NCBI GenBank assembly: GCA_025058055.1
Contig: JANXEU010000029.1
Coordinates: forward strand, 1-11,624
Length of the DNA stretch: 11,624 bases
DNA from: Candidatus Calditenuaceae archaeon
GTDB lineage: Archaea; Thermoproteota; Nitrososphaeria_A; Caldarchaeales; Calditenuaceae
Direction of reading: 5' to 3'
The notes beneath the pieces are model-generated. The model saw nothing but the letters and a program-made list of their open reading frames with translations. It did not search any database and was not told the origin of the DNA. Below, piece after piece: positions 1 through 11,624 of this stretch; the first letter of the stretch is position 1; each line of letters opens with the position of its first letter. A program made the translations under genes and the position numbers.

Positions 1-1133
1 TTCCTGAGGCCACCCATCTGGTCGATGTCGTTGGTAGCGACCGCGTGAATCACGGAGCCCGCCGCGAGGAAGAGGAGGGCCTTGAAGGCCGAGTGGCTGA
101 GCAGGTGGTAGACCCCGGAGGCCCAGCCCGCGACCGAGCCGGCACCGATCGCCGCGAACATCAAGGCCAGCTGGCTGATCGTGGAGTACGCCACCACCCT
201 CTTGATGTCGTTCATGACGAGGCCCATGGTGGCCGCGAAGAGAGAGGTGAAGCTGCCGATGGTGATCATCAGCGCGTACCAGTCGGAGAGCTGTGCTGTG
301 CCGAAGTGCTCGACCGGGACAAGCGTCCAGGAGTATCTGGCCATCAAGTAGACTCCGGCCTTGACCATCGTTGCGGCGTGGATGAGCGCGCTGACAGGAG
401 TGGGGCCCTCCATGGCGTCCGGGAGCCAGACGTGGAGCGGGAACTGGGCGGACTTGCCCATCGCTCCACCGAAGGCCAGCAGCATCACCAGCGACATGAA
501 GCCGGGGTCGATCCCCTGACCGTGGACCTTATGGGCGATCTCCGAGACGCTGAGCGACCCGAACCTCGAGAAGAGGAGCGCTATTGAGGCGAAGAGCATG
601 ACGTCGCCTATCCTCGTGGTGACGAAGGCCTTGATCCCGGCGAGCCTCGCCTCCTTCCTGTGGTAGTAGAAGCTGATGAGCCCGTAGCTGCAGATGCCCA
701 CTATCTCCCAGCCTATGTAGAGGCCTGCGAGGCTGTCCGAGACGACCAGCAGCGTCATGCCGCCGATGAAGAAGGTCATGAAGAACCAGTACCTCGGGAG
801 GCCCTCCTCATGGGACATGTAACCCACGGAGTAGATCAGGATGAGAAGGCCGATGCCGTTGGCGATGGCTGCCATGAGGACCGAGAGCGGGTCCAGGAGA
901 ACGCCGAACTTCAGCTCCGTGCCGCCGGGGAGGGCGAGCCACGAGGCCTCGACGACCTGAGAGGGCTTGCCGTAGACGTCCGGGATCATCGAGACGGCGA
1001 AGGCCGTTGAGAGCGCAACCAGCGAGATCGAGTAGAGCTCACCGACGCGCTTTCCGATTTTGAAGAACGCGGGCACCAGCGTCGACCCGAGGATCGGTAT
1101 CAGCCAGACCAGCCAGGGCGCGTAGGGCAGCAT
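1..1133 (-). CDS. Complex I antiporter-like subunit, NuoL/MrpA family (NADH-quinone oxidoreductase chain L or Mrp antiporter subunit A). N-terminal ~377 aa only; the C-terminus lies beyond the left window edge.
   Basis: I translated the minus strand by hand from the ATG at 1133-1131, which is preceded by an in-frame TGA at 1160-1158. It reads MLPYAPWLVWLIPILGSTLVPAFF...LDPLSVLMAAIANGIGLLILIYSVGYM...GWEIVGICSYGLISFYYHRKEA...TTRIGDV...GKSAQFPLHVWLPDAMEGPTPVSALIHAATMVKAGVYL...AYSTISQLALMF...HLLSHSAFKALLFLAAGSVIH and stays open to base 3. These are hallmark motifs of the proton-conducting NuoL/ND5/MrpA family, including the chain-5 N-terminal segment. The + strand ORFs 45..587 and 660..1010 are R/E/D/G/H-rich antisense shadows. 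Confidence 0.9.
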   Translation of the reverse strand, partial: MLPYAPWLVWLIPILGSTLVPAFFKIGKRVGELYSISLVALSTAFAVSMIPDVYGKPSQVVEASWLALPGGTELKFGVLLDPLSVLMAAIANGIGLLILIYSVGYMSHEEGLPRYWFFMTFFIGGMTLLVVSDSLAGLYIGWEIVGICSYGLISFYYHRKEARLAGIKAFVTTRIGDVMLFASIALLFSRFGSLSVSEIAHKVHGQGIDPGFMSLVMLLAFGGAMGKSAQFPLHVWLPDAMEGPTPVSALIHAATMVKAGVYLMARYSWTLVPVEHFGTAQLSDWYALMITIGSFTSLFAATMGLVMNDIKRVVAYSTISQLALMFAAIGAGSVAGWASGVYHLLSHSAFKALLFLAAGSVIHAVATNDIDQMGGLR

Positions 1134-1308
1134 GATCTTCGGATAGCCCGCTATACCTCAGAATAAAGGCTTGACCCTGCAGAACGGACCGGGCCGACCA
1201 GGGCGTGGAGGACGGGCCTCTCGGAGCTATCTCAGTCCCTTGAGTCGTTACGGCGATGGCCGGAGCCCGGAGGAGGGACGGGGGAGCGATCGGGAGGCGC
1301 GCGGGTAG

Positions 1309-1848
1309 ATGAGCGGGACTCGAGTGCTCGGGCAAAGGGTGATGTATACTGCGGGTCGATGTAAGGTCGTGAGGCGGCTGGTCTTGGTGGGGTTGATAGT
1401 GGCCCTCGCGGTGATGCTGATGGGCACGTTGATGGCCGTGAACCTCGACAGGGGCGGGGCGGGCGGAGGGCCCTGCGCAGACAGACTGGGGTTCGACGAG
1501 AGGAACGGCGTGACGCTGACCCTGAGGCCGGCCTTCGTCGGAAGCGGTGTCAGGTCGATCGAGTACACGATCGTGAACAGGAGGAGCGAGCCGGTCTACT
1601 TCGGCGCGCCGTACGACGTCCAGAAGTTCACCGACGGCAAATGGGTCACGGTTGAATGGATGAAGGACCGTGTCTGGATAATGATACTCTACTCGCTGAA
1701 CTCCGGGGGGTCGATGACCCTGACGGTCGAGCTACCGGAAGACATCGAGCCGGGATGCTATCGACTCGTCAAGGAGGTAATGCTGCGGGACACCACGGAA
1801 TCCGAGTGGAAAGTAGAGCTGGTTGCGACGTTCGTCGTGGAGCGGTGA
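1309..1848 (+). CDS. Hypothetical membrane-anchored or secreted protein with a single N-terminal hydrophobic helix and a beta-rich, possibly Ig-like, C-terminal domain
   Basis: The ORF track gives a 179-aa ORF. A hydrophobic anchor (RRLVLVGLIVALAVMLMGTLMAV) is followed by a G-rich linker and alternating beta-strand-like patterns (IEYTIVNRRSEPVYFGAPYDVQKFTDGKWVTVEW, MTLTVELPEDIEPGCYRLVKEV). These resemble Ig-like/proteinase-inhibitor-like folds, but that is only an impression. The start is ambiguous: in-frame ATG 1309, ATG 1342 or GTG 1369, the last giving MRRLVLVG. Confidence 0.6.
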   Translation: MSGTRVLGQRVMYTAGRCKVVRRLVLVGLIVALAVMLMGTLMAVNLDRGGAGGGPCADRLGFDERNGVTLTLRPAFVGSGVRSIEYTIVNRRSEPVYFGAPYDVQKFTDGKWVTVEWMKDRVWIMILYSLNSGGSMTLTVELPEDIEPGCYRLVKEVMLRDTTESEWKVELVATFVVER

Positions 1849-1868
1849 TCCTCAGCGGCCGATGAGAG

Positions 1869-1876
1869 TTAAATTA
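1869..1876 (+). promoter_or_regulatory. Candidate archaeal TATA box for the tRNA gene
   Basis: TTAAATTA is centred about 27 nt upstream of tRNA position 1 (base 1900). This matches the usual archaeal TATA-to-start distance. Confidence 0.5.
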
Positions 1877-1926
1877 GGGGCGCGTGAGAGTAACGACAGG
1901 CCGGGGTACCTCAGCTGGCTAGAGGC

Positions 1927-1943
1927 GTTTGCCGGACAAAGGG
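1927..1943 (+). other. tRNA intron 1 (~17 nt) at a non-canonical position between the D stem and anticodon stem; boundaries are approximate to within 1 nt
   Basis: There are 18 nt between the D-stem 3' strand (GAGG, ending at 1925) and the anticodon-stem 5' strand (starting at 1944), where only position 26 is expected. The insert can form a TTTG/CAAA hairpin (1928-1931 with 1937-1940). Confidence 0.6.
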
Positions 1944-1955
1944 CCGCGCTCATAA

Positions 1956-1975
1956 TCCCTCGGTGAGGGATGAAT
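1956..1975 (+). other. tRNA intron 2 (~20 nt) at or next to the canonical 37/38 position in the anticodon loop; boundaries are approximate to within 1-2 nt
   Basis: 20 extra nt separate the 7-nt anticodon loop from the 3' anticodon-stem strand. The intron pairs ATGA (1970-1973) with TCAT (1950-1953), covering the anticodon, and forms an internal CCCT/AGGG hairpin. This layout is bulge-helix-bulge-like. Confidence 0.65.
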
Positions 1976-2187
1976 CGCGGTTGTCGTGGGTTCGAATCCC
2001 ACCCCCGGCAGGTTCAACAAGAACCCTCATGAGATTCTGAACTAGGTGTCATCAACGAAACTTGGCCCTCGTGTTGGAGGAACAGAGGGACGCGGAGGGT
2101 TACGAAATGCATTCTGCACGAAAAACAGTAACTCAATTAACAGAATATCTACAGACTACATCAAAAATCAAAAACGAAGAGGAGAGG

Positions 2188-2649
2188 TTATGTCACGTTG
2201 GTGCAGGTCAACGTTGCAGACGTCGGTGCCCATGGGGCGGTTCCAGTTCCCAGAGTGGCCAGCACCGCTGTCGGGTAGGACTTGCCGCCTGCGCTGTAGA
2301 ACGCAAGCTCAACCGTAACTCCGGGAGGTGGGGACTGTACGTCTACGTCACACTGAACTGTCTGACCGACGGGTACCGCGACCGGGGCCGCCGGAGTGCC
2401 TATGGCCCTTCCCTGCACGACGACCTGAATTATCGAGGTGTCCGCAGATCCGGTGTTCCTCAACCTCACCCTGAACGTGTCTTGGTCGGTCATAACAGCC
2501 GAGACGATCTCCAGCTTCTCGAACCTCGTGAAGACTCCGACCAGACCGGAGGCCCAGAACGCCACCGCGATCGCGATCACGATAGCGACCGCAACCAGTA
2601 TAACCGTCGCGACTACCGGGCTTATCGCCTTCTTCTCCCGTCTTCTCAT
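2188..2649 (-). CDS. Archaeal type IV pilin-like protein with a class III signal peptide (DUF361 / archaeal flagellin N-terminal-like domain)
   Basis: The N-terminus is MRRREKKA|ISPVVATVILVAVAIVIAIAVAFWASG. A basic leader ends in K-A, followed by a ~21-residue hydrophobic helix, the typical prepilin-peptidase (PibD/FlaK-type) substrate. The C-terminal part is beta-rich with two Cys (QCDVDV and LTCTNVT). It is a paralog of the 2809..3240 gene. Confidence 0.85.
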   Translation of the reverse strand: MRRREKKAISPVVATVILVAVAIVIAIAVAFWASGLVGVFTRFEKLEIVSAVMTDQDTFRVRLRNTGSADTSIIQVVVQGRAIGTPAAPVAVPVGQTVQCDVDVQSPPPGVTVELAFYSAGGKSYPTAVLATLGTGTAPWAPTSATLTCTNVT

Positions 2650-2662
2650 TTCACCCAGATTG

Positions 2663-2690
2663 ATCTTTATCCAGTAGATAAATATTTCAT
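2663..2690 (-). promoter_or_regulatory. Candidate promoter (TATA-like tract) for the 2188..2649 pilin gene
   Basis: The minus strand reads AAATATTTATCTACTGGATAAAGAT, lying 14-40 nt upstream of the ATG at 2649 within an AT-rich 159-bp intergenic spacer. Confidence 0.4.
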
Positions 2691-2808
2691 GAATAAGAGA
2701 CTGATGATCATGAGAACCAACTGATTAACAAAATGAACCTAAAAGGCTCTAACTAATATTAATAGTTATGCTGTATTTTGCATGTTAGACACGAGATTGA
2801 TTAACAGT

Positions 2809-3240
2809 TTAGACACAGTGAACGGATTCTACGTTAGTCGCGAACGGCCCCGAGAAGCCACCGTGATTGGCCATGAACACGGTCGGGAACCTCTTCCCGG
2901 TGGAGGTGATCACCACCAGCTCGATCGAGGCACCGACTGGCAGGTCTCCGTTGACACGAACCACACAGGTCCTCACAGCCCCGGTCCCCACATCGATACC
3001 ACTCGGCAGCCGATAGTACACTCTGCCCATCAGCTCGACCGCCGAGATCGAGGAGACCGCCACCCCCGGGTTCTTAACGGTGAACTCGATCGTCCTGCCG
3101 TCGACGGTCCTTGCCCCGATGATTTCCAGCCTCTCGAAGGGCGTGACCTGCGCGACGAACCCCGAGGCCCAGAACGCGACCGCTACAGCGGCTACCACCG
3201 TGACGGCAATAAGGATCGCCGCCTCCACCGAGACCTCCAT
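2809..3240 (-). CDS. Pilin-like paralog with a conserved hydrophobic N-terminal helix but no recognisable prepilin leader
   Basis: MEVSVEAAILIAVTVVAAVAVAFWASGFVAQVTPFERLEIIGA aligns without gaps to the predicted mature N-terminus of the neighbouring pilin (ISPVVATVILVAVAIVIAIAVAFWASGLVGVFTRFEKLEIVSA). Both proteins have a central and a near-C-terminal Cys. Confidence 0.8.
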   Translation of the reverse strand: MEVSVEAAILIAVTVVAAVAVAFWASGFVAQVTPFERLEIIGARTVDGRTIEFTVKNPGVAVSSISAVELMGRVYYRLPSGIDVGTGAVRTCVVRVNGDLPVGASIELVVITSTGKRFPTVFMANHGGFSGPFATNVESVHCV

Positions 3241-3264
3241 CCAGCACAGTGAACGAGCCTCCAG

Positions 3265-3274
3265 TATATTATTA
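3265..3274 (-). promoter_or_regulatory. Candidate TATA box for the 2809..3240 pilin-like gene, implying a leaderless or near-leaderless mRNA
   Basis: The minus strand reads TAATAATATA, centred about 29 nt upstream of the ATG at 3240. Confidence 0.5.
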
Positions 3275-3348
3275 GAGCGCTCTTGTCCGCCCCGCTCGAC
3301 ACGTGGACCCGAAAAGCTTTTACCGAGTCTAGACGTAAATGAAACAGC

Positions 3349-5127
3349 ATGGGATTCTCCGACTCCTTCGCGTCCTTCTCCTTCGCCTACTTCAGGAGCT
3401 TGGGCAGTAAGATCGTCCTCCGCTTAGCTCCAGGCATACCGGACAAGCTGGACTCCACCGGGAAGCGCCTCCACCCGGAGGTCTTCGCGTCGATGGTGAT
3501 GAGCGCCTTCTTCATCTCGCTGGCGGTCACCGGGGCCGTCATGGCCGCTGTGTACCTGATAACGCTAAACTGGCTCTACGTGATCCTTCTCGTGCCCATA
3601 CCGGTGCTGGTGCTGCTCTTCGGCATAGCCTATCCGTACCTCTCCGCCGCCAACACCTCGTCCATGTACGAGAGCGAGGTCCCCTACGCAGCCGCCTATC
3701 TGGCCGTCATGTCCACGGGTGGCATACCGCCGTTCAAGAGCCTCGAACGCCTCGCTGAGACCGACCTCCTCCCGAGCATCGCCAAATCGGCACAGGTGGC
3801 CCAGATACACGTCAAGATCGCGGGCGAAGACCCCGTCACGGCAATCGAGAAGATGGCCAAGGGCATACCTTCGAAGGAGTACAGAGACCTGCTGCTGGGA
3901 TACGCGTCAACCCTCAGGAGCGGCGGCGACGTCGTCCACTACCTGATCCGGAAGACCGAGCAAATCTTCACGGGGAGGATGGGGACGATGAGGATCGTCG
4001 GCGAGAGGATGGGCATGCTGATGGAGGGGTTCGCGGCGATCACTATGATGCTCTCGCTGGTCCTCTTCACGATCTACATCATCTCGAGGGCCCTTCCGTC
4101 CGAGTTCATGGTGATGCCCCAGGAGCAGTTCGTCATCATCTCCTACGTGATCCTCCCCACGCTCTCCATCGTCTTCGTCTACATCGCCGACATCAGCCAG
4201 CCCAAGTACCCCCAGACCGACCCGAGACCCATGAAGGTCTTCTACCTCACGATGCCGGCCGGACTGGCGTTCCTAGTCCTCTTCGTCGTCCCCTTCTTCT
4301 TACCCGAACTGAGGACGATACAGCCCTTCAATTTCACCTCCTCCCTCATGGTCGGGTTAAGGTCCGCGATGGGCCTCGAACCCGGATACGAGTCGTCTCT
4401 TGCGCTCTGCCTCACCTTCATCGCCCTCTTCCTGCCAGGCGCGGTAGCCTTCAGGACCTACAGCTCCGAGAACTTCTCCGTCATCCACGGGATGACCCTC
4501 TTCCTCAGAGACCTCACAGAGGTCAGGAAGACCGGGCTGAGCCCAGAGCAGTGCATCATAGACCTCTCCCAGAACTCCTACGGCGCCTTCTCCAAGAGGC
4601 TGAGGGAGATCGCGAGACAGATAAGCTGGGGGATACCGCTGAAGAAGATCTATCAGGACTTCACCAAGAGGACCTACGGCTGGCTGGAGAAGGCAGGTAT
4701 ATTCATTCTAATTGACGCGATCGACGTCGGTGGTGGCGCTCCCGAGACCCTCGAGGTCCTCACGAGCTTCTCCGAGGATCTGGAGGAGATAGAGAGGCAG
4801 AAGCGCGCAACGCTCAGACCGCTCATGATGATACCATACCTGACGGCCATTCTACTGGTAGTGGTCGTGGTCATACTGATAGTCTTCATGAGGGAGCTCC
4901 TGAAGGTCGCCAGAATGCCCATCTCGACCGCCGAGTTCATCGGTTCCTTCCTCCCGCCGGTGATCTTCATCGCTGCGATCAGCGGGCTCGTCGCCGGTAA
5001 GATCTCCACCTCTAGAGTCGCAGGGGGCTTCGTTCACGCCACCATACTATCGGTCATCTCGCTGCTGGCGATCTGGATATCCGGAGTGATGGCTGTACAG
5101 TTGTTCCAGCTACCCTCCGTGGGTTGA
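3349..5127 (+). CDS. FlaJ/ArlJ/TadC-type polytopic membrane platform protein of an archaeal type IV pilus-like system, with two T2SS-F-like repeats
   Basis: The 592-aa ORF has two repeats, each a cytoplasmic helical domain followed by TM helices. Repeat 1 is VPYAAAYLAVMSTGGIPPFKSLERLAE...AGEDPVTAIEKMAKGIPSKEYRDLLLGYASTLRSGGDVVHYL. Repeat 2 is FLRDLTEVRKTGLSPEQCIIDLSQ...ISWGIPLKKIYQDF...IDAIDVGGGAPETLEVLTSFSEDL. There are many hydrophobic segments, and the size and layout are typical of FlaJ/UpsF/AapF-type proteins. Confidence 0.85.
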   Translation: MGFSDSFASFSFAYFRSLGSKIVLRLAPGIPDKLDSTGKRLHPEVFASMVMSAFFISLAVTGAVMAAVYLITLNWLYVILLVPIPVLVLLFGIAYPYLSAANTSSMYESEVPYAAAYLAVMSTGGIPPFKSLERLAETDLLPSIAKSAQVAQIHVKIAGEDPVTAIEKMAKGIPSKEYRDLLLGYASTLRSGGDVVHYLIRKTEQIFTGRMGTMRIVGERMGMLMEGFAAITMMLSLVLFTIYIISRALPSEFMVMPQEQFVIISYVILPTLSIVFVYIADISQPKYPQTDPRPMKVFYLTMPAGLAFLVLFVVPFFLPELRTIQPFNFTSSLMVGLRSAMGLEPGYESSLALCLTFIALFLPGAVAFRTYSSENFSVIHGMTLFLRDLTEVRKTGLSPEQCIIDLSQNSYGAFSKRLREIARQISWGIPLKKIYQDFTKRTYGWLEKAGIFILIDAIDVGGGAPETLEVLTSFSEDLEEIERQKRATLRPLMMIPYLTAILLVVVVVILIVFMRELLKVARMPISTAEFIGSFLPPVIFIAAISGLVAGKISTSRVAGGFVHATILSVISLLAIWISGVMAVQLFQLPSVG

Positions 5128-5132
5128 TTAGA

Positions 5133-6740
5133 TCACTCAGACTTCGAAAGCTCACTTACGAGCTCGGAGACCACGGACGTTAAAACCTGTCTGAGAGCGA
5201 CATTACTGGGAGATGAAACATCGATGAGTTTGATGCCGAAGCTCTTTGCGATGGTCTCAACGGTCGACGGCCACTTCGCTACCGCCAGCACGTGAACCTC
5301 CTTGATCTCCTTCTCCAGCCTGAGCCAGACCGCCTCCGAGAGGACCTCGCCCGCGCTCCTGTAGGGGGAACCGAACGAGAGGAAGGCTGCCACTGGACTC
5401 TCGTCCCGCTTCACTAGGAGCTCGACGATGTGTGGTGTTCCCGCGGAGTCCAGAAGCACAGAAGGCGACTCGACCCTCAGCCCTGCCTCTTGCAGGAGAT
5501 TGTACAGCATCAGAAGCGGCCTCTTCTCCTTCTCCAGATACTCTTTGTACTCCGGCTTGAGCTTGAAGTTGTAGAAACGCTGATACTTGCCGTACTGCGC
5601 GTCGTAACGGTTGCCGCAGGCTTTGCAGGTGAACTCGGTTCTAGGTATCTCGGAGATCGACCCACACGAGTTACACCTGAAGAGGGTCGAGTAGAGCAAG
5701 AAGGTTACGCCCTGCGGCCTGCCTGCAGCACCTCCCTCTCCTGAACCGTATGACTGGACGTCCTCGCCTCTTATCCTGCACTGCGGACACTCATAGTAGG
5801 CGAGCTTCGTGAACGACAGTAAGGGGCCCAAATATCCGCAATTTGAGCACTGAATTACCTCTTGGCGCTCTATGTCTTCGGACTTGCAATACGCACAGAC
5901 GAGCTCGTAAGACGCATCGATACCGTTGCACCTAGGACACGACAACGTTTTGAAGGCGAAATCTCCTACCAGCACTCCCTTTCTCCAGAGCGAGGTTAAC
6001 AGCTCCAATATCGACCTCGATTCCAGGCCCAACGCCTCCTCGGCCTCTTGGTATCTGCCTCCGAGTGGTGCCCTGTCGTCTCTCAATGGTTTCAGGACTT
6101 TACCGTACTCTGCTAACCACTCAACTAACGTAAGCTCCGCGTGGGAAAGAGTGATGACCGTGGGGGCAGCGTCTACGAACTCCTGCACCTTGGTGAGAAC
6201 TTGTGGCTGATCGCTCGTCGACACCAATTGAACGGTCGATTCCGAGGGCGCCTCCTCCTGAGGCTTTGGTGAAGAGGACTGGGCCGTCCCAGCGGGCGAT
6301 GGAATCTGAACACGCGCTTCTTCACGTTGCTCGGTTTGCGCGACCGTCTTCTCAGGCTTCTTCTCGAGACCCGACACCAACGCGTACGCTATCGAAACAC
6401 TGAGACCTATAGCTGGAAGAGGGACAGAGAACACGACGTGTCTTCCAAAAGCAGCCACACCTTCTGGAGTGATAAGGGACACAACGAACGTCCCGATGAC
6501 CCATCCCACCAACACGCCGAGTAAGGCTAGGACGTTTCCAGCAATGCGACGCAAGAACAGCATGAGAACGCCGAGTATCACACCACCGAGTACCGAGGGC
6601 AAGAAAACGAAGAACTGTGAAAGGGGAGAGAGTAAAAGGAGCGCGACAAGGGTCACGACAGATCCCAGAGCAATGTTAACCAGTAAGGGTAATAATTTGC
6701 CCCTATATGCGGATCCCGTCATCATTTCTCCGCCATTCAC
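5133..6740 (-). CDS. Membrane-anchored multi-Zn-ribbon protein: ~4-5 N-terminal TM helices, a low-complexity linker, a helical domain, six CxxC pairs and a C-terminal alpha/beta domain. Function unknown.
   Basis: The ORF is 535 aa. TM segments lie within residues ~15-125 and a P/Q/E/S-rich linker spans ~130-180. Cys pairs are at residues 268/271, 282/285, 298/301, 318/321, 356/359 and 372/375 (nt 5616-5939). The track start at 6740 is GTG. ATG codons at 6725 and 6722 (MMTGSAYRGK...) are plausible alternatives, since a TATA-like AAAATATATG (6751-6760, minus strand) lies ~30 nt upstream of them. Confidence 0.75.
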   Translation of the reverse strand: MNGGEMMTGSAYRGKLLPLLVNIALGSVVTLVALLLLSPLSQFFVFLPSVLGGVILGVLMLFLRRIAGNVLALLGVLVGWVIGTFVVSLITPEGVAAFGRHVVFSVPLPAIGLSVSIAYALVSGLEKKPEKTVAQTEQREEARVQIPSPAGTAQSSSPKPQEEAPSESTVQLVSTSDQPQVLTKVQEFVDAAPTVITLSHAELTLVEWLAEYGKVLKPLRDDRAPLGGRYQEAEEALGLESRSILELLTSLWRKGVLVGDFAFKTLSCPRCNGIDASYELVCAYCKSEDIERQEVIQCSNCGYLGPLLSFTKLAYYECPQCRIRGEDVQSYGSGEGGAAGRPQGVTFLLYSTLFRCNSCGSISEIPRTEFTCKACGNRYDAQYGKYQRFYNFKLKPEYKEYLEKEKRPLLMLYNLLQEAGLRVESPSVLLDSAGTPHIVELLVKRDESPVAAFLSFGSPYRSAGEVLSEAVWLRLEKEIKEVHVLAVAKWPSTVETIAKSFGIKLIDVSSPSNVALRQVLTSVVSELVSELSKSE

Positions 6741-7016
6741 TAGGCATCCCCATATATTTTTGTTTCTAAAATAACAACCACTTAAGATCGCTCCCAGCTT
6801 GCCTCACCCATGAAGGGCACAAATCTTCACCATGTGGCCCCTTGAATTCGGGTATTATGCTTTCGGATCAGCTCCGAAGTTATGCTAAAGGACGAACTAT
6901 CGACGTTTTCGTTAGGAGTTTAATTTTTAATTTATATATTGGACAGTTGAGATTCACCGAGCGCTTGGAAAAGACAAAGTTTATTGAATTAACGTTGCGA
7001 AGAGGCTGTTCGGGCT

Positions 7017-8207
7017 TTGAGCGGATCGAGGAGCCACGTCAACGTAGCGATCTTCATGGTCAGCATAGGGTTAGCCAACGCCCTCTCGACCGGCTTGCAA
7101 CCGCTTCTCCCATACTTCATCAGGGGCTTGGGGGCCACCGTTGAGCAGGTAGGCTTCGCCCTGGCCCTCTCAAGAGTCTCGTACCTAATTCTCTCGCCGA
7201 TAGGTGGGGTCCTAGCTGACATGTGGGGGAGGAAGACGGTGCTTGTGCTGTCACCGCTGATCACGGGCTTCGCCTACCTGCTGCTGGCTGAGTCGACCGA
7301 CTGGCTGTCGTCGGTGGTACCGCTGATGCTGATCATGCTTCCTGTAGCGCTAACCGGACCGGCGGTCTTCGCGTACATCGCGGACCTCTCTTCTGCAGAG
7401 AGATACGGTCGATTCTACGGCCTGTACTTCGGCGTCGTCAACGCGGCCACCGTCATAGGGTACCTGGCTGCCGGACCACTTGTCGAGTTCAGCGGTTATC
7501 GGGCAGTCTTTCAAATCACCGCACTGACCCTCCTCCTAAGTGCAGCCCTGCGGATCGCACTGAAGGAAACCCGTACCCGAAAGGACAGCACTACGATGGA
7601 CCTCAGCCTCCTGCTGAGGAGCTCTGTAAAAGCGGCATCCAAGGGGCCGCTGCCGGCCCTCATCACGCTCAGGAGCCTCAACTTAGCGCAGATATGGGTT
7701 CTGACCGGAATCGTCATACCGTTAGTCGCAAGGGACGTCATACAGCTGAGCGAATCAGACCTGACCTTGATGTTCGCGTTCGAATCGATCGTCTTCGCGT
7801 CTCTTTCCACGCTCGGTGGAAGGTTGGTAGAGGGTGAGAGGTGGTTCCTGTACATCTGGTTGGAGATAGTTATGCGCTCTCTGAGTGTATTGGTTCTCAT
7901 AACTATGAGCACGTGGTTCGGGGTTCTGCTCGCGCTGCTCTTGGGATCAGGTCTAGCCATCTTTTTCCAGCCATTCGTCGACTCAAGAACCTCCGCTCAC
8001 GTCGACAGGTCCATAAGGGGAGGGGTCTGGGGAATCCAGCAGCTGCTGTACACCGCATCTACAATGGTAGCCACGTACGGTGCTAGCCTCGTGTGGGAGA
8101 CTCTTGGCTATCAGATCGCTATTTGGTTCACCGTGCTGCCGGTAATGTTCATGATTCCGATAGTTCATCAGATTCGTAAACAGACCGTTTTGGCAAACGC
8201 TCGGTGA
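7017..8207 (+). CDS. Major facilitator superfamily (MFS) transporter; substrate unknown
   Basis: The 396-aa hydrophobic ORF carries MFS motif A in the TM2-TM3 loop (GGVLADMWGRKTVL) and multiple TM segments throughout. The start is TTG at 7017, the first start codon after the in-frame TAA at 6990-6992. ATG 7056 is an alternative. Confidence 0.8.
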   Translation: MSGSRSHVNVAIFMVSIGLANALSTGLQPLLPYFIRGLGATVEQVGFALALSRVSYLILSPIGGVLADMWGRKTVLVLSPLITGFAYLLLAESTDWLSSVVPLMLIMLPVALTGPAVFAYIADLSSAERYGRFYGLYFGVVNAATVIGYLAAGPLVEFSGYRAVFQITALTLLLSAALRIALKETRTRKDSTTMDLSLLLRSSVKAASKGPLPALITLRSLNLAQIWVLTGIVIPLVARDVIQLSESDLTLMFAFESIVFASLSTLGGRLVEGERWFLYIWLEIVMRSLSVLVLITMSTWFGVLLALLLGSGLAIFFQPFVDSRTSAHVDRSIRGGVWGIQQLLYTASTMVATYGASLVWETLGYQIAIWFTVLPVMFMIPIVHQIRKQTVLANAR

Positions 8208-8281
8208 TCTTTTCCAAATTGCCATCAAAATACACTGTCCAGCACCTAAAGTGAGAAATCGTAGAGCAGAACGACCGAGAG

Positions 8282-8292
8282 CTTAATCATTT
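8282..8292 (+). promoter_or_regulatory. Candidate TATA-like element for the 8313..9185 gene
   Basis: CTTAATCATTT is centred about 26 nt upstream of ATG 8313. The match to a TATA box is weak. Confidence 0.3.
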
Positions 8293-8312
8293 GGATATCT
8301 GTGTAGTGATAG

Positions 8313-9185
8313 ATGGCCACCGAGGCTATAAGGTCGAATGTGTTAGCCGCCTTGGTCGAGCTCGCTTCTTCGGGAACGACTCTCATCAAGCCTATGTTCG
8401 ATCCACAGGCACCGAACGGGGTGTCCTACCCGGAGGCTGATGAAGCGTTCAACACCAAAGGTGCCGAGACCGAGGAGCTCCTCGAGAACCTTCACAGGGC
8501 CGGCATGCTGAAGAGGACACTTTTAGACGTCATAAGGGCGTGTCCGGTATGTGGACACGTCGACGTTGAGGCAAGGGAAGCGTGTCCGAGTTGCAAGTCC
8601 CCGAATTTGACAGTTGGGGACCGAAAGGTGTCTTGCATGAGTTGTGGAACGGTATCTCAATCTCCCGAGTTCGTGCTTCACTGTAGCAAATGCGGGAATC
8701 TGTTCCCTCAAGAAGCAGCTAAGTTACGGCCGCTATTCGCTTACCTGATCGCCAAATCGACGCTAACGGAACAAGAAAGGACCGCGAAGTCTAACGTGAT
8801 AGAGATAACTGGAAGGCTCGTATTGCAAACCCCTCTCATGGAGGAGATGAGGAGGGTCATGGAGAGCATGACTGAGAGAATAGAGAAGGCAGTCAACAGG
8901 CTCGTCGAAACTTCAGGTCGGTTGGAGGCCGGATCGCAGGCGACTGGGCAGGGCAGGGCCTTTACGAGGACCACCCTGTCACCCGCGCTTAGGAAGACGC
9001 TGGAGGCCCTCTCTCAGGTGGGAAGTGCCACGGCCGAAGAGGTCTCATCTCTGACCGGAAGGACGAGGCCCCTCGAGAGCGTCTATCTCAACCAGCTGGC
9101 CTATATGGGATACGCTACAAAGGAGAGGAAAGGACAGAGGATCTACTTCAGGTCCTTGAACCAGACGATGTTGGAGATGAAATGA
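8313..9185 (+). CDS. Soluble double Zn-ribbon protein with a coiled-coil segment and a C-terminal winged helix-turn-helix; putative transcription regulator and paralog of the Zn-ribbon module in 5133..6740
   Basis: The ORF is 290 aa, with Cys pairs at residues 77/80, 91/94, 108/111 and 124/127 (nt 8541-8693). A heptad-like segment reads LMEEMRRVMESMTERIEKAVNRLVE. The C-terminal LRKTLEALSQVGSATAEEVSSLTGRTRPLESVYLNQLAYMGYATKERKGQRIYFRS has a MarR/ArsR-like wHTH pattern. Confidence 0.7.
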   Translation: MATEAIRSNVLAALVELASSGTTLIKPMFDPQAPNGVSYPEADEAFNTKGAETEELLENLHRAGMLKRTLLDVIRACPVCGHVDVEAREACPSCKSPNLTVGDRKVSCMSCGTVSQSPEFVLHCSKCGNLFPQEAAKLRPLFAYLIAKSTLTEQERTAKSNVIEITGRLVLQTPLMEEMRRVMESMTERIEKAVNRLVETSGRLEAGSQATGQGRAFTRTTLSPALRKTLEALSQVGSATAEEVSSLTGRTRPLESVYLNQLAYMGYATKERKGQRIYFRSLNQTMLEMK

Positions 9186-9347
9186 ACCGAGCGCCCTTGA
9201 ATACGGATTGGCAACTCGTTTCCGTCTCTTACCATGAGGGAGTTGTATGATCTGCTACGGAGCGAAGCGGCTGACACCTTATGGGATGCAACAGTTACCT
9301 GAAACTCGAGACCAATCGGGAACGCGGGGGTTTAGCTGTCCGTTGGG

Positions 9348-9363
9348 TATACTATTTTTATAT
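9348..9363 (+). promoter_or_regulatory. Strong TATA-like box, probably the promoter of the large pilin-like operon
   Basis: TATACTATTTTTATAT lies 31-46 nt upstream of ATG 9394. It sits inside the N-terminal extension that the ORF track proposes (start 9247). Confidence 0.55.
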
Positions 9364-9393
9364 GACGCAGTGGCGGCTAAGATTAGATCCTTG

Positions 9394-10614
9394 ATGAGAA
9401 TGATGGTTCGTCAACCTCGTGACGCGATTAAAGGTCGTATGGGAATCTCGCCAGCCGTTGCGACCGCGATTCTGGCTGGCGTCACCCTTTTCCTAGGTAT
9501 TTTACTCATCACGCTCAGTGCTGGCTGGTTCAGCGTTAACGCGACCGATCTGAACCTACAGGCCAACCGCGAGATACAGTTGATCAAGACTTCAGGGTTA
9601 CTGGTCTTCGAAAGCGTTAGGTACGCTGCAAACTCAGCTAGTCGTAGTGCAACAGTCAGGAACGTCTCCGAAGTCGAGTTATGCGTGACCAGAGTTGAGT
9701 TGATCCGCGAAAACGGTATTCTGGCTGGGGTATGGCCCACGTCCCCTGAGGGGTGGGCGAGGTGTGATCCGACTGGACTGAATCCTATTATGTCTAGGCA
9801 GAGCCTCAATCTCAGCGCAACGGATGGTACCTTACCGCCTTGCATCGACTGCAGCCCTGGAGAGCGCATCAGGCTGAGAGTTTGGTACATCGCGAGGTCA
9901 CTTTACGATCAAAACAACCCTGTGAACTCTGCGGACGAGATGCGCTTCACTGAGACGCTGATCGTCTTCCCAGGAACGAGGAGAGTCGGAATGTGCACTG
10001 CAAATTTGGGTAGCAGGTATGTCGTCCTGAGCTCCATCGACCCGCTCACGAACTACAACAACGGTCGAATAATGGACAGCCCCAACGACAAGCTTTACCT
10101 CGGTTTCTCGCATTCGACACCAGCAACAGACAACCCCGTGCACTTCGGAGTTAAACTAGTGGGACGCGATAACGTCGTAGTAGTAATAAGCAGTAACCTG
10201 AGGATAGATGTGCCATACGAGCAGGCCATCGCTGGAGCAGCTGGTATATCAACGCCCTTCTCAGCGTACGCCAGCGGTTACTATCAACCGGTTCCATGGG
10301 AGTTTTACTTCGACAGAACCGATGACGGAGTGTTGCACGTCTCAGACATCCGGCTGATAACACAGTACCGCTCCTACCTGAGCGAGTTTCCGATTCTGAC
10401 GAGCGTTCAGCTTACACTGGGCAAATTATACGGTGTAGCTGTGCACGACAGGCCCGTTAATGTGTATTTAACTGATTGTAATGGCGTTCGTCTAGCGACT
10501 CTGTCCATCACGATCTCAGCGGGAAGCGAGGAGGAGTGGATCACCGTGTTCATAGACGTCCCTGAGATAATTGAGGTTACCGAGCTAGCGAAAGTGGAGG
10601 TTTACCTTAGATGA
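9394..10614 (+). CDS. Large (~406 aa) pilin-like protein with a class III signal peptide; candidate minor pilin or adhesin
   Basis: In the frame of ORF 9247..10614, the segment MRMMVRQPRDAIKGRMG|ISPAVATAILAGVTLFLGILLITL matches the leader/cleavage/hydrophobic-helix pattern of the small pilin (KKA|ISPVVATVIL). I moved the start to ATG 9394 because of the TATA box at 9348-9363 and the implausible 49-aa extension. ATG 9400 and 9403 are also possible. The remainder is beta-rich and carries several Cys. Confidence 0.75.
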   Translation: MRMMVRQPRDAIKGRMGISPAVATAILAGVTLFLGILLITLSAGWFSVNATDLNLQANREIQLIKTSGLLVFESVRYAANSASRSATVRNVSEVELCVTRVELIRENGILAGVWPTSPEGWARCDPTGLNPIMSRQSLNLSATDGTLPPCIDCSPGERIRLRVWYIARSLYDQNNPVNSADEMRFTETLIVFPGTRRVGMCTANLGSRYVVLSSIDPLTNYNNGRIMDSPNDKLYLGFSHSTPATDNPVHFGVKLVGRDNVVVVISSNLRIDVPYEQAIAGAAGISTPFSAYASGYYQPVPWEFYFDRTDDGVLHVSDIRLITQYRSYLSEFPILTSVQLTLGKLYGVAVHDRPVNVYLTDCNGVRLATLSITISAGSEEEWITVFIDVPEIIEVTELAKVEVYLR

Positions 10615-11624
10615 CCCGGAAGAGAACGCGCGGGGACTCAGACGTGGTCTCAACGGCCATCGCCCTCTCGTTGGTCGTTGCAATAGGGATAAGCTTGCTC
10701 ATCCTCCTCAACTCCAGAGCTATGATCAGCCGACAGGAAGCGGTCGAGGACCTGAACAGAGATCAACTTTTGCTGAGATCATTGCTCGCTGCGGATTACG
10801 CGCTGTTCCCCGATCCGAGACTGGGGGAGGGCTCGGGAATTGGTATGATCAAGTTTAGAAACGTCGGAGACGTGCCAATAACGATATTCAGGTTAATCGT
10901 GTACAGAAACGGATCTGTCTCTTCCGATTCAGGAATCAATCCTTCAAGGTTCATAACGCTCGGGGTAAGGTCTGAGGAAGAGAGAACGGAGGAGATTAGG
11001 TTCACCTGTCGTGGTTGCAGGGCCGGTGACCCGATACTCGTGACGGTTCACTACGTTCCCACCGCACTGATAAACCCGGCAGACCCTACCACCATCGATC
11101 CGCTCTACAGGACGATGCTCTACAAGGTTGCCGAGTTCAAGCCGATCGTACCTCAGGCGCTAGCTTCCCCCATCTGCCCGCTGCCGGATAACTGGATCTT
11201 CATCGAGTTCGTGGATCCTGTGGAGGAGATGATGAGACAGCAGGGAGGTCCTATTCAGGCTGTAATTACTAACAGGCTGAGGTTCAGGGTGACTATGGCC
11301 AGCAACCCCAATTTGGACACAACGATCAACGTCATAGTGACCGACGGCACTAATCAGATGACCGGATCGGTTCGAATATCTCCGCCCTACCCGAGGCAGT
11401 ACGAGGTCGAGCTACGGGGCCCGGTTCTCAGGTATCCCGTGTCGGTTCAGTTCACGTCTGATACTGTAGACATACGTCCGGAAACGTGGAGGTTCAACAC
11501 CGACAGCGAAGTCCTTATACCGGATTACATGCGCCTCAGCGTAGACAACCTCAACAACTTAGTTGTAGGTCTGTTGGCGTCAGCTTACGCGACCGAGGAC
11601 ACGTCTGCGACGGTGCGCATGGAC
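10611..11624 (+). CDS. Second large pilin-like protein with a class III signal-like N-terminus; partial (338 codons), continuing beyond the right window edge
   Basis: It is absent from the ORF track because there is no stop in the window. I translated it by hand from ATG 10611: MTRKRTRG|DSDVVSTAIALSLVVAIGISLLILLNSRAMISRQEAVEDL...; the frame is open to 11624. The ATG overlaps the upstream TGA (ATGA at 10611-10614), and GGAGG lies at 10596-10600. A basic leader with R-G followed by a hydrophobic helix fits the class III signal pattern. Confidence 0.75.
   Translation, partial: MTRKRTRGDSDVVSTAIALSLVVAIGISLLILLNSRAMISRQEAVEDLNRDQLLLRSLLAADYALFPDPRLGEGSGIGMIKFRNVGDVPITIFRLIVYRNGSVSSDSGINPSRFITLGVRSEEERTEEIRFTCRGCRAGDPILVTVHYVPTALINPADPTTIDPLYRTMLYKVAEFKPIVPQALASPICPLPDNWIFIEFVDPVEEMMRQQGGPIQAVITNRLRFRVTMASNPNLDTTINVIVTDGTNQMTGSVRISPPYPRQYEVELRGPVLRYPVSVQFTSDTVDIRPETWRFNTDSEVLIPDYMRLSVDNLNNLVVGLLASAYATEDTSATVRMD

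Follow-up and report, generated by a model that had tools for sequence, protein, structure and literature searches.

We analyzed a stretch of 11,624 nucleotides from a Candidatus Calditenuaceae archaeon (contig JANXEU010000029.1, positions 1 to 11,624; this whole stretch is called the window below), in which two genes for Zn-ribbon proteins lie on either side of a transporter gene of the major facilitator superfamily (MFS). According to the open reading frames, gene A (5133-6740, - strand, GTG start) codes for a membrane-anchored protein of 535 amino acids (aa) of the TackOD1 family and gene B (8313-9185, + strand) for a soluble protein of 290 aa, which combines a cut-down TackOD1 module with a C-terminal winged helix-turn-helix (wHTH) domain. 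On the basis of the DNA sequence these proteins had originally been predicted to act as a dedicated pair of membrane sensor and soluble regulator. We favor a different reading with a probability of about 0.6, in which A serves a type IV pilus locus as a membrane-tethered component with an accessory or regulatory role, B acts locally on the MFS gene as its regulator, and the two belong to different subfamilies with different partners. As the conserved gene partners of A and B differ, the proteins probably do not form a dedicated sensor/regulator pair. The proposed pair found no support, because A occurs without B outside the clade of the window, B follows the MFS gene and the two proteins are not closest relatives. 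Current views are not overturned by these results; the idea of a dedicated pair is weakened.

Relationship of A and B to the TackOD1 family

The open reading frames and Cys motifs were found exactly at the predicted positions, with CxxC motifs at residues 268, 282, 298, 318, 356 and 372 of A and at residues 77, 91, 108 and 124 of B. A BLASTP comparison aligned residues 205-306 of A with residues 14-132 of B with 31% identity (E=4e-13). The Cys-free helical segments of both proteins share 40% of their residues in an alignment of 53 aa (E=7e-11, z=15 against shuffles) and the similarity persisted with all Cys residues masked (E=4e-7), so it extends beyond the Cys residues. A profile-profile comparison of the A family with the B family using hhalign resulted in a probability of 98.2% (E=5.6e-14). 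Both proteins also match Pfam TackOD1 (PF18551) well above the gathering cut-off of 32 bits, A with 85.6 bits (E=4e-24) and B with 73.1 bits (E=2.8e-20), as do all 62 relatives of our alignment. The claim of homology is thus confirmed on the pairwise and on the profile level, and TackOD1, which the original prediction had named, is the correct family.

The proposed pairing of the CxxC motifs needs to be corrected. It had been assumed that the third and fourth motif of both proteins are in register. Profile alignments instead place the second ribbon of B on the third ribbon of the family. The second domain hit of hmmsearch aligned profile positions 260-310 with residues 107-157 of B (E=6.5e-13) and the result of hhalign was concordant. 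The segment C108-C127 of B aligns with C356-C375 of A, with an equal spacing of 13 residues and the common pattern CxSCG...P...C..CGN. The middle ribbon of A (C298-C321) is absent from B in the profile alignments.

The name TackOD1 was given to an output domain of response regulators from Thaumarchaeota, which was described with eleven conserved Cys residues in five CxxC motifs and one HxxC motif; the domain was treated as identical to arCOG06883 and was said to have an obscure function (Galperin et al. 2018, PMC5847659). Stand-alone proteins and fusions of the types REC-TackOD1 and REC-wHTH-TackOD1, with REC for the receiver domain, have been reported (PMC5847659, PMC4858521), and proteins of arCOG06883 with double Zn ribbons were found in type IV pilus loci of Thaumarchaeota (Makarova et al. 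2016, PMC4858521). In the literature searched we found no mention of TackOD1 beyond these two papers. Since the family, the Zn ribbons and the link to pilus loci have already been published, the core of our observation is a rediscovery: A and B share with TackOD1 the domain, at least part of the conserved CxxC array and the siting in type IV pilus loci known from Thaumarchaeota and the TACK group. A contains all six motifs, with HxxC replaced by CxxC (C298), and B contains four, with the HxxC...CPxC ribbon deleted.

To define the subfamilies we used an exhaustive profile search (E up to 0.001, representative clusters); word-based homologue searches had yielded only 4-14 relatives. The exhaustive search revealed 604 representative clusters, mostly soluble proteins of about 320-350 aa which match residues 200-510 of A. 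About a dozen clusters (P0019-P0027, P0031 and others) have N-terminal transmembrane (TM) helices like A. Loci of this TM subfamily were additionally sought by a metagenome scan with a 5-sequence alignment; the residue census of the family and the model of A are based on a 62-sequence alignment. Outside its own group B matches soluble TackOD1 proteins best, and it does not occur among the top 45 matches of A. Judged by these similarities, A and B each have closer relatives than one another and belong to different TackOD1 subfamilies. A recent duplication as origin of the two genes was rejected on these grounds. Membership of A or B among the response regulators was rejected as well, because a Pfam scan at E up to 1 detected no REC domain in either protein. 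This absence separates both proteins from the REC-TackOD1 regulators; in addition, the wHTH domain of B is located at the C-terminus and not in front of TackOD1 as in the REC-wHTH-TackOD1 proteins.

Domain architecture of the two proteins

The NCBI annotation of A (P0001) comprises 489 aa and begins downstream of the GTG start of the 535-aa frame; the additional N-terminal part corresponds to positions 6603-6740 (- strand). We prefer the longer version because conservation in P0003 extends over residues 8-46, and the annotated start is probably too far downstream. The additional residues contribute the first TM helix. A Kyte-Doolittle scan of residues 14-124 (6369-6701, - strand) suggested about four hydrophobic helices, in agreement with the TM-anchored relatives P0019-P0027 and P0031; of the four to five helices proposed earlier the lower number therefore holds and the fifth does not. 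Basic residues are located at the N-terminus, in loop 2 (LRR) and behind the fourth helix (EKKPEK). As they flank the predicted cytoplasmic sides, we infer a topology with both termini inside and short outside loops. With such short extracytoplasmic loops there is no obvious external sensor domain. The membrane region is followed by a poorly conserved linker rich in Pro, Gln, Glu and Ser (residues 125-195; 6156-6368, - strand; alignment). Orthologues of A show 32-76% identity and are sited in type IV pilus loci.

The cytoplasmic part of A aligns end to end with the stand-alone TackOD1 proteins of 320-350 aa. A differs from these proteins by the anchor of four TM helices with the linker and by the third motif, which has Cys where His is usual. 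An AlphaFold2 (AF2) model of residues 190-535, calculated with the 62-sequence alignment, has a mean confidence (pLDDT) of 92.8 and a pTM of 0.79. It consists of a winged-helix-like N-domain, three Zn ribbons, a long helix and an alpha/beta domain, and the third ribbon and the alpha/beta domain at the C-terminus, both proposed previously, are part of this confident model. The N-domain (residues 200-264; 5949-6143, - strand) is predicted with pLDDT values above 90 in the order helix, strand, helix, helix, hairpin, and its Cys-free sequence is similar to residues 14-66 of B. Its identification as a winged helix is based on the topology of the model only. Ribbon 1 (C268, C271, C282, C285; 5886-5939, - strand) has Cys residues that are invariant in the 62 family members. 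Ribbon 2 (C298, C301, C318, C321; 5778-5849, - strand) was assigned by profile alignments; its first ligand is His in 57 of the 62 members and Cys in A. Ribbon 3 (C356, C359, C372, C375; 5616-5675, - strand) is the counterpart of the second ribbon of B.

Foldseek and the family profile were used to analyze the C-terminal part of A (residues 396-535; 5136-5555, - strand), which comprises the long helix and the alpha/beta domain. The Foldseek search with the C-terminal domain identified a PD-(D/E)xK fold with AF1548 (1y88) as top match (E=4.6e-5) and further matches to R2 RLE, Can2/Card1/Cdn1, EcoT38I, MspJI and Bax1. The profile of the A family matches 1y88 also by sequence (E=3.8e-5), and 10 of the 62 family members match Pfam Mrr_cat (PF04471), the best with 4.1e-13. 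A match to Mrr_cat was not obtained with the sequence of A itself, and Pfam scans of the isolated N-domain, C-domain and TM region of A revealed nothing above threshold. Modeling and profile comparisons identify the C-terminal domain as a restriction-endonuclease-like domain of the PD-(D/E)xK type, similar to Mrr_cat and AF1548. Such a domain is mentioned neither in the TackOD1 paper (PMC5847659) nor in its supplement. The combination of this domain with a winged-helix-like front end is a new feature of full-length TackOD1, a widespread domain which is a fixture of thaumarchaeal pilus loci and the output domain of some response regulators and has so far been only a name.

Inspection of the active-site region argues for a loss of catalysis. 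The conserved residues of the C-domain in the family are a His, an Asp in beta-2, an Asp in beta-3 and a Lys and an Asp in a helix, and a residue census indicated that no family member has the canonical Lys of the (D/E)xK motif. Of the conserved set only H437, E440 (the acid of beta-2) and E476 are left in A, the last as an exchange of the helix Asp (D476) for Glu. The Asp of beta-3 is replaced by F453 without a Lys at position +2 and the family Lys of the helix by L473. The acid of beta-3 is also lost in most other TM-anchored members, and a nearby Asp is retained in P0023-P0025. Because of this degeneration we treat the C-domain of A as a probably non-catalytic binding module; the status of an active Mrr-type nuclease was rejected for A on the basis of the same residues.

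The layout of A nevertheless raises the question of a role in DNA handling. A winged-helix-like N-domain followed by a C-terminal PD-(D/E)xK fold is an arrangement which we take to recall Mrr-type enzymes, and A is strictly linked to genes of the pilus platform and the pilins. Ups pili mediate DNA exchange in Sulfolobales. It is therefore conceivable that A is an Mrr-like factor at the base of the pilus which binds or processes DNA during its uptake or exchange via the pilus. We consider this improbable. The Lys of beta-3 is missing in the whole family and the acid of beta-3 in A and, apart from the nearby Asp of P0023-P0025, in most TM-anchored members, and genes of the Ced or ComEC type were not seen in the loci. 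The REC-TackOD1 response regulators, judged by their published length of 318 aa, also lack the nuclease-like domain. A further differs from Mrr in that its winged-helix-like and PD-(D/E)xK domains are separated by three Zn ribbons and in its context, which is a pilus locus and not a set of restriction-modification or defence genes. A broader version of this idea appears to us to be a long shot: full-length TackOD1 proteins (arCOG06883) would be domesticated Mrr-like modules and an integral cytoplasmic part of the type IV pilus machine of Nitrososphaerota, membrane-tethered in Caldarchaeales, which couples the pilus to DNA binding or processing during uptake or exchange, and B would be a derivative in which the DNA-binding front end has been put to new use in a transcription factor.

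A comparison of domain layouts points to a second possibility. ArnR and ArnR1 are membrane-bound regulators of the archaellum of Sulfolobus acidocaldarius with an N-terminal HTH domain and C-terminal TM helices. Like these proteins, A is membrane-tethered, has a putative DNA-binding domain and is encoded in a locus for a type IV filament, and it could be a one-component regulator of pilus genes which binds the divergent promoter via the winged-helix-like domain and the ribbons. The wHTH-like topology of the AF2 model is consistent with such a function, as is the orientation of the gene in three related loci (L019, L024 and L025), where it is divergent from pilin-like genes. TackOD1 is moreover an output domain of response regulators (PMC5847659), a role which often involves DNA binding. 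In contrast, profile methods did not confirm the wHTH assignment, and the domain order of A is the reverse of that of ArnR, with the TM helices at the N-terminus. The Zn ribbons and the nuclease-like fold are further features that set A apart from ArnR. On balance this is a possible but rather unlikely account of A.

In the favored reading the four N-terminal TM helices of A would hold the module at the cytoplasmic face of the membrane, where it may bind nucleic acids or proteins and assist or regulate the pilus system; a nuclease activity is improbable. Binding of DNA in the manner of ArnR and docking onto the machinery are two conceivable modes of action.

The TackOD1 part of B begins with the helical, winged-helix-like segment (residues 9-73; 8337-8531, + strand), which was identified by the Cys-free similarity to A and by profile alignment. 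It is followed by ribbon 1 (C77, C80, C91, C94; 8541-8594, + strand; profile alignment) and ribbon 2 (C108, C111, C124, C127; 8634-8693, + strand), which hmmsearch and hhalign equate with ribbon 3 of the family. In contrast to other TackOD1 proteins, B has no middle ribbon and no nuclease-like C-terminal domain; a helical linker and an ArsR/TrmB-like wHTH are present instead. The linker (residues 132-201; 8706-8915, + strand) is a putative coiled coil, with helices predicted by AF2 at residues 139-155 and 176-201 (pLDDT below 50). The wHTH (residues 221-284; 8973-9164, + strand) was modeled with pLDDT values of 77-88 and the topology H-H-H-E-E. Foldseek matched it with a probability of 1.0 to AspA, AntR, ArsR, MarR and NolR. 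The model and the structural matches thus uphold the predicted C-terminal wHTH fold, and the JGI annotation of B orthologues reads 'Zn-ribbon and HTH transcriptional regulator / ArsR family'. The orthologues of B share 35-80% identity.

The fold of the C-terminal domain and the position beside an efflux-type MFS gene relate B to the ArsR/SmtB, TrmB and MarR regulators. Local regulators of these types are usually encoded beside transporter genes. B differs from them in its sequence, which scores below the family cut-offs: Pfam TrmB is matched with E=0.0012-0.0026 and 18-19 bits (cut-off 25.6) and NCBIfam HTH_metalloreg with E=0.0016 and 18.2 bits (cut-off 55). The sensor-like N-terminal part is also different, as it is the TackOD1 Zn-ribbon module and not a canonical ArsR metal site. 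Compared with the full-length proteins, B retains the winged-helix-like domain together with ribbons 1 and 3, has dropped ribbon 2 along with the nuclease-like domain and has acquired the linker and the wHTH. We infer that it acts as a DNA-binding transcription factor for the adjacent MFS gene and/or for itself. Its Cys4 ribbons could have a structural role, mediate dimerization or oligomerization or form a metal- or redox-sensitive module.

Conserved gene partners of A and B

The window is a genuine archaeal type IV pilus locus. A T2SSF/TadC-type platform gene (3349-5127, + strand; Pfam T2SSF E=1e-20) is convergent with gene A across a gap of 5 nt and is a conserved neighbor of A-type genes. 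Upstream of it are two type IV pilin genes. The first (2188-2649, - strand) matches NCBIfam UpsA (E=5e-9) and arch_flag_Nterm (E=5e-8), and the second (2809-3240, - strand) is a paralogue of the first (E ~1e-21). In the sister locus L001 the gene cluster runs on to a T2SSE ATPase. These genes substantiate the proposed pilus-locus setting. The gene order also agrees with the placement of A and B on either side of the MFS gene (7017-8207, + strand; Pfam MFS_1 E=1.1e-28). This gene is DHA/efflux-like, with weak matches of the protein to multidrug/Tet efflux families in NCBIfam. Two genes for large proteins are located downstream of B: p455 (about 9370-10614, + strand), a large pilin-like protein, and a 604-aa pilus-locus protein (10611-11624, + strand), of which the window contains only the start.

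Besides the window we examined twelve loci with A-type genes (L001, L004 and L016-L025), all of which we class as type IV pilus loci. In eight of them (L001, L004, L016, L017 and L020-L023) the A-type gene and T2SSF converge, and pilin genes come after T2SSF wherever the contig reaches that far. Three further loci (L019, L024 and L025) contain the A-type gene divergent from homologues of p455, 604 and 441 or beside T2SSE/T2SSF, and in all three it is directly divergent from the p455-like gene. The remaining locus, L018, is too short and shows only a truncated neighboring gene. Neither an MFS gene nor a B gene was present in the ten A-type loci outside the clade of the window (L016-L025) within the sequence examined. 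A is thus conserved with pilus platform and pilin genes, and a membrane-anchored TackOD1 subfamily of Caldarchaeales tied to these genes is a new finding. An unrelated feature of L016 is a HepT/MNT (nucleotidyltransferase) toxin-antitoxin pair with Cdc6 and RFC just upstream of the A-type gene (3931-4747 of that locus).

The partner of B is a different one. Fifteen loci with B-type genes (L001-L015) were examined besides the window, and in all 14 with upstream sequence B is located directly 3' of the orthologous MFS gene on the same strand. Genes for T2SSE, T2SSF, pilins or A-type proteins were detected neither in L010, L012, L014 and L015 (about 10 kb on each side) nor in L008 (about 2 kb downstream). 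Of the earlier expectation that both paralogues co-occur with pilus genes, the part on A is borne out, and the part on B only within Calditenuaceae. B is about 35% identical in L010, L012, L014 and L015, which derive from Caldarchaeales outside the Calditenuaceae. The MFS-B pair lies within a syntenic block in these four loci. Its neighbors in L015 match, according to Pfam, a metallo-beta-lactamase, a metallophosphoesterase, two hemerythrins, a HAD hydrolase, a glycerate-kinase-like protein and, weakly, V4R; neighbors of this type may indicate a metal, oxygen or redox theme for the signal of B. B is found beside type IV pilus genes only in Calditenuaceae, namely in the window, in L001/L004 and in Ca. 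Calditenuis fumarioli (L006), where MFS-B adjoins a differently arranged set of T2SSE and pilus-locus genes and no A-type gene was detected within 10 kb.

The adjacency of A and B is limited to the clade of the window (the window, L001 and L004). The MFS-B unit of the window occupies exactly the place between A and p455, two genes whose counterparts in L019, L024 and L025 are direct divergent neighbors; this suggests a clade-specific insertion or rearrangement of the unit. Taken together, B is conserved with the MFS transporter and its adjacency to A is lineage-specific. A TackOD1 subfamily with deleted ribbon 2, fused to a second, C-terminal wHTH and strictly linked to MFS genes, is a further new finding.

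These neighborhoods bear directly on the idea that A as membrane sensor and B as soluble DNA-binding paralogue jointly control pilus genes, for example by sequestration and release of B through TackOD1 contacts. The homologous module of both proteins, their adjacency inside the pilus locus in the window and L001/L004 and the position of B beside pilus genes also in L006 are consistent with such a joint action. The identity between the window and L001, 76% for A and 80% for B compared with 97-98% for T2SSF and the antiporter, could likewise reflect co-evolution. On the other side, the ten A-type loci L016-L025 contain neither B nor the MFS gene, the B-type loci of five other Caldarchaeales genomes contain neither A nor pilus genes in the flanks examined, A and B are not closest paralogues and A has no sizeable extracytoplasmic domain. 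We regard joint control as quite unlikely in general; a sensor/regulator pair is possible for Calditenuaceae, but it is not the conserved logic.

The DNA between the genes is compatible with a separate transcription of B. The MFS-B spacer (8208-8312) contains a T-rich tract after the MFS stop codon and a TATA-like element, CTTAATCATTT, at about 8282-8292. In alignments of all three B clades (the window and L002-L015) this spacer is about 105-116 nt long, with the T-rich tract directly after the MFS stop and the TATA-like element about 20-30 nt before the start of B. Because of this element B probably has its own promoter, and the arrangement suggests that B is transcribed separately with little or no leader. 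The divergent A/MFS intergenic region (6741-7016) contains AT-rich TATA-like tracts at about 6751-6774 and 6919-6941; repeats or palindromes were not found in this region, and alignments upstream of the MFS gene showed TATA-like blocks only.

Several observations weigh against the favored assignment of A to the pilus locus and B to the MFS gene. The retained residues H437, E440 and E476 of A are compatible with residual metal binding or catalysis. A comparison of the TackOD1 N-domain with the C-terminal wHTH of B by hhalign reached a non-significant probability of 14.5%, and the match of the TackOD1 N-domain of B to Pfam HTH_69 is weak (E=0.023). Outside the wHTH the AF2 model of B is poor, with a mean pLDDT of 57.6, and operator-like direct or inverted repeats were absent from the five intergenic regions searched. 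Finally, B adjoins type IV pilus genes in two clades of Calditenuaceae in different orders (window/L001 and L006), and some functional tie between B and the pilus is conceivable. The assignment nevertheless makes three hypotheses on TackOD1 testable: DNA binding, regulation of the pilus and regulation of a transporter.

Other features of the locus

The closest genomes to the window are those of Candidatus Calditenuaceae and Caldarchaeales, an Aigarchaeota-type lineage of Nitrososphaerota. The contig is part of a metagenome-assembled genome, and proteins of the window carry the database names NZ988_05565 and NZ988_05575. At the left end there is a partial gene for an Mrp/NuoL-like antiporter (3-1133, - strand), followed by a gene for a Big_14 protein (1309-1848). 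The G+C content is about 62-64% over this end (1-2000) and lower, about 51-58%, over the larger part of the pilus locus; the T2SSF region, with about 60%, is above the rest of the pilus locus.

The two large proteins encoded downstream of B have lengths of 413-455 aa and, in L001, of 604 aa. Both matched no Pfam family. They are distant paralogues with 22.5% identity (E=2.4e-6), and their genes are kept in all related type IV pilus loci. The N-terminus of p455 matches NCBIfam UpsA (E=7.6e-4) and resembles a class III signal peptide; the frame of this protein spans 9247-10614 (+ strand), and the start at 9370 was derived from tblastn. The two proteins may be large minor pilins or adhesins.

The amino-acid identity between the window and L001 is very uneven. 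The antiporter (98%) and T2SSF (97%) have the highest values, followed by the 604-aa protein (93%), pilin153 (92%), Big_14 (88%), the MFS protein and p455 (84% each) and pilin143 (81%). B and A, with the values given above, are the fastest-changing genes of the locus, and the differences in A are found mainly within the TM and linker region.

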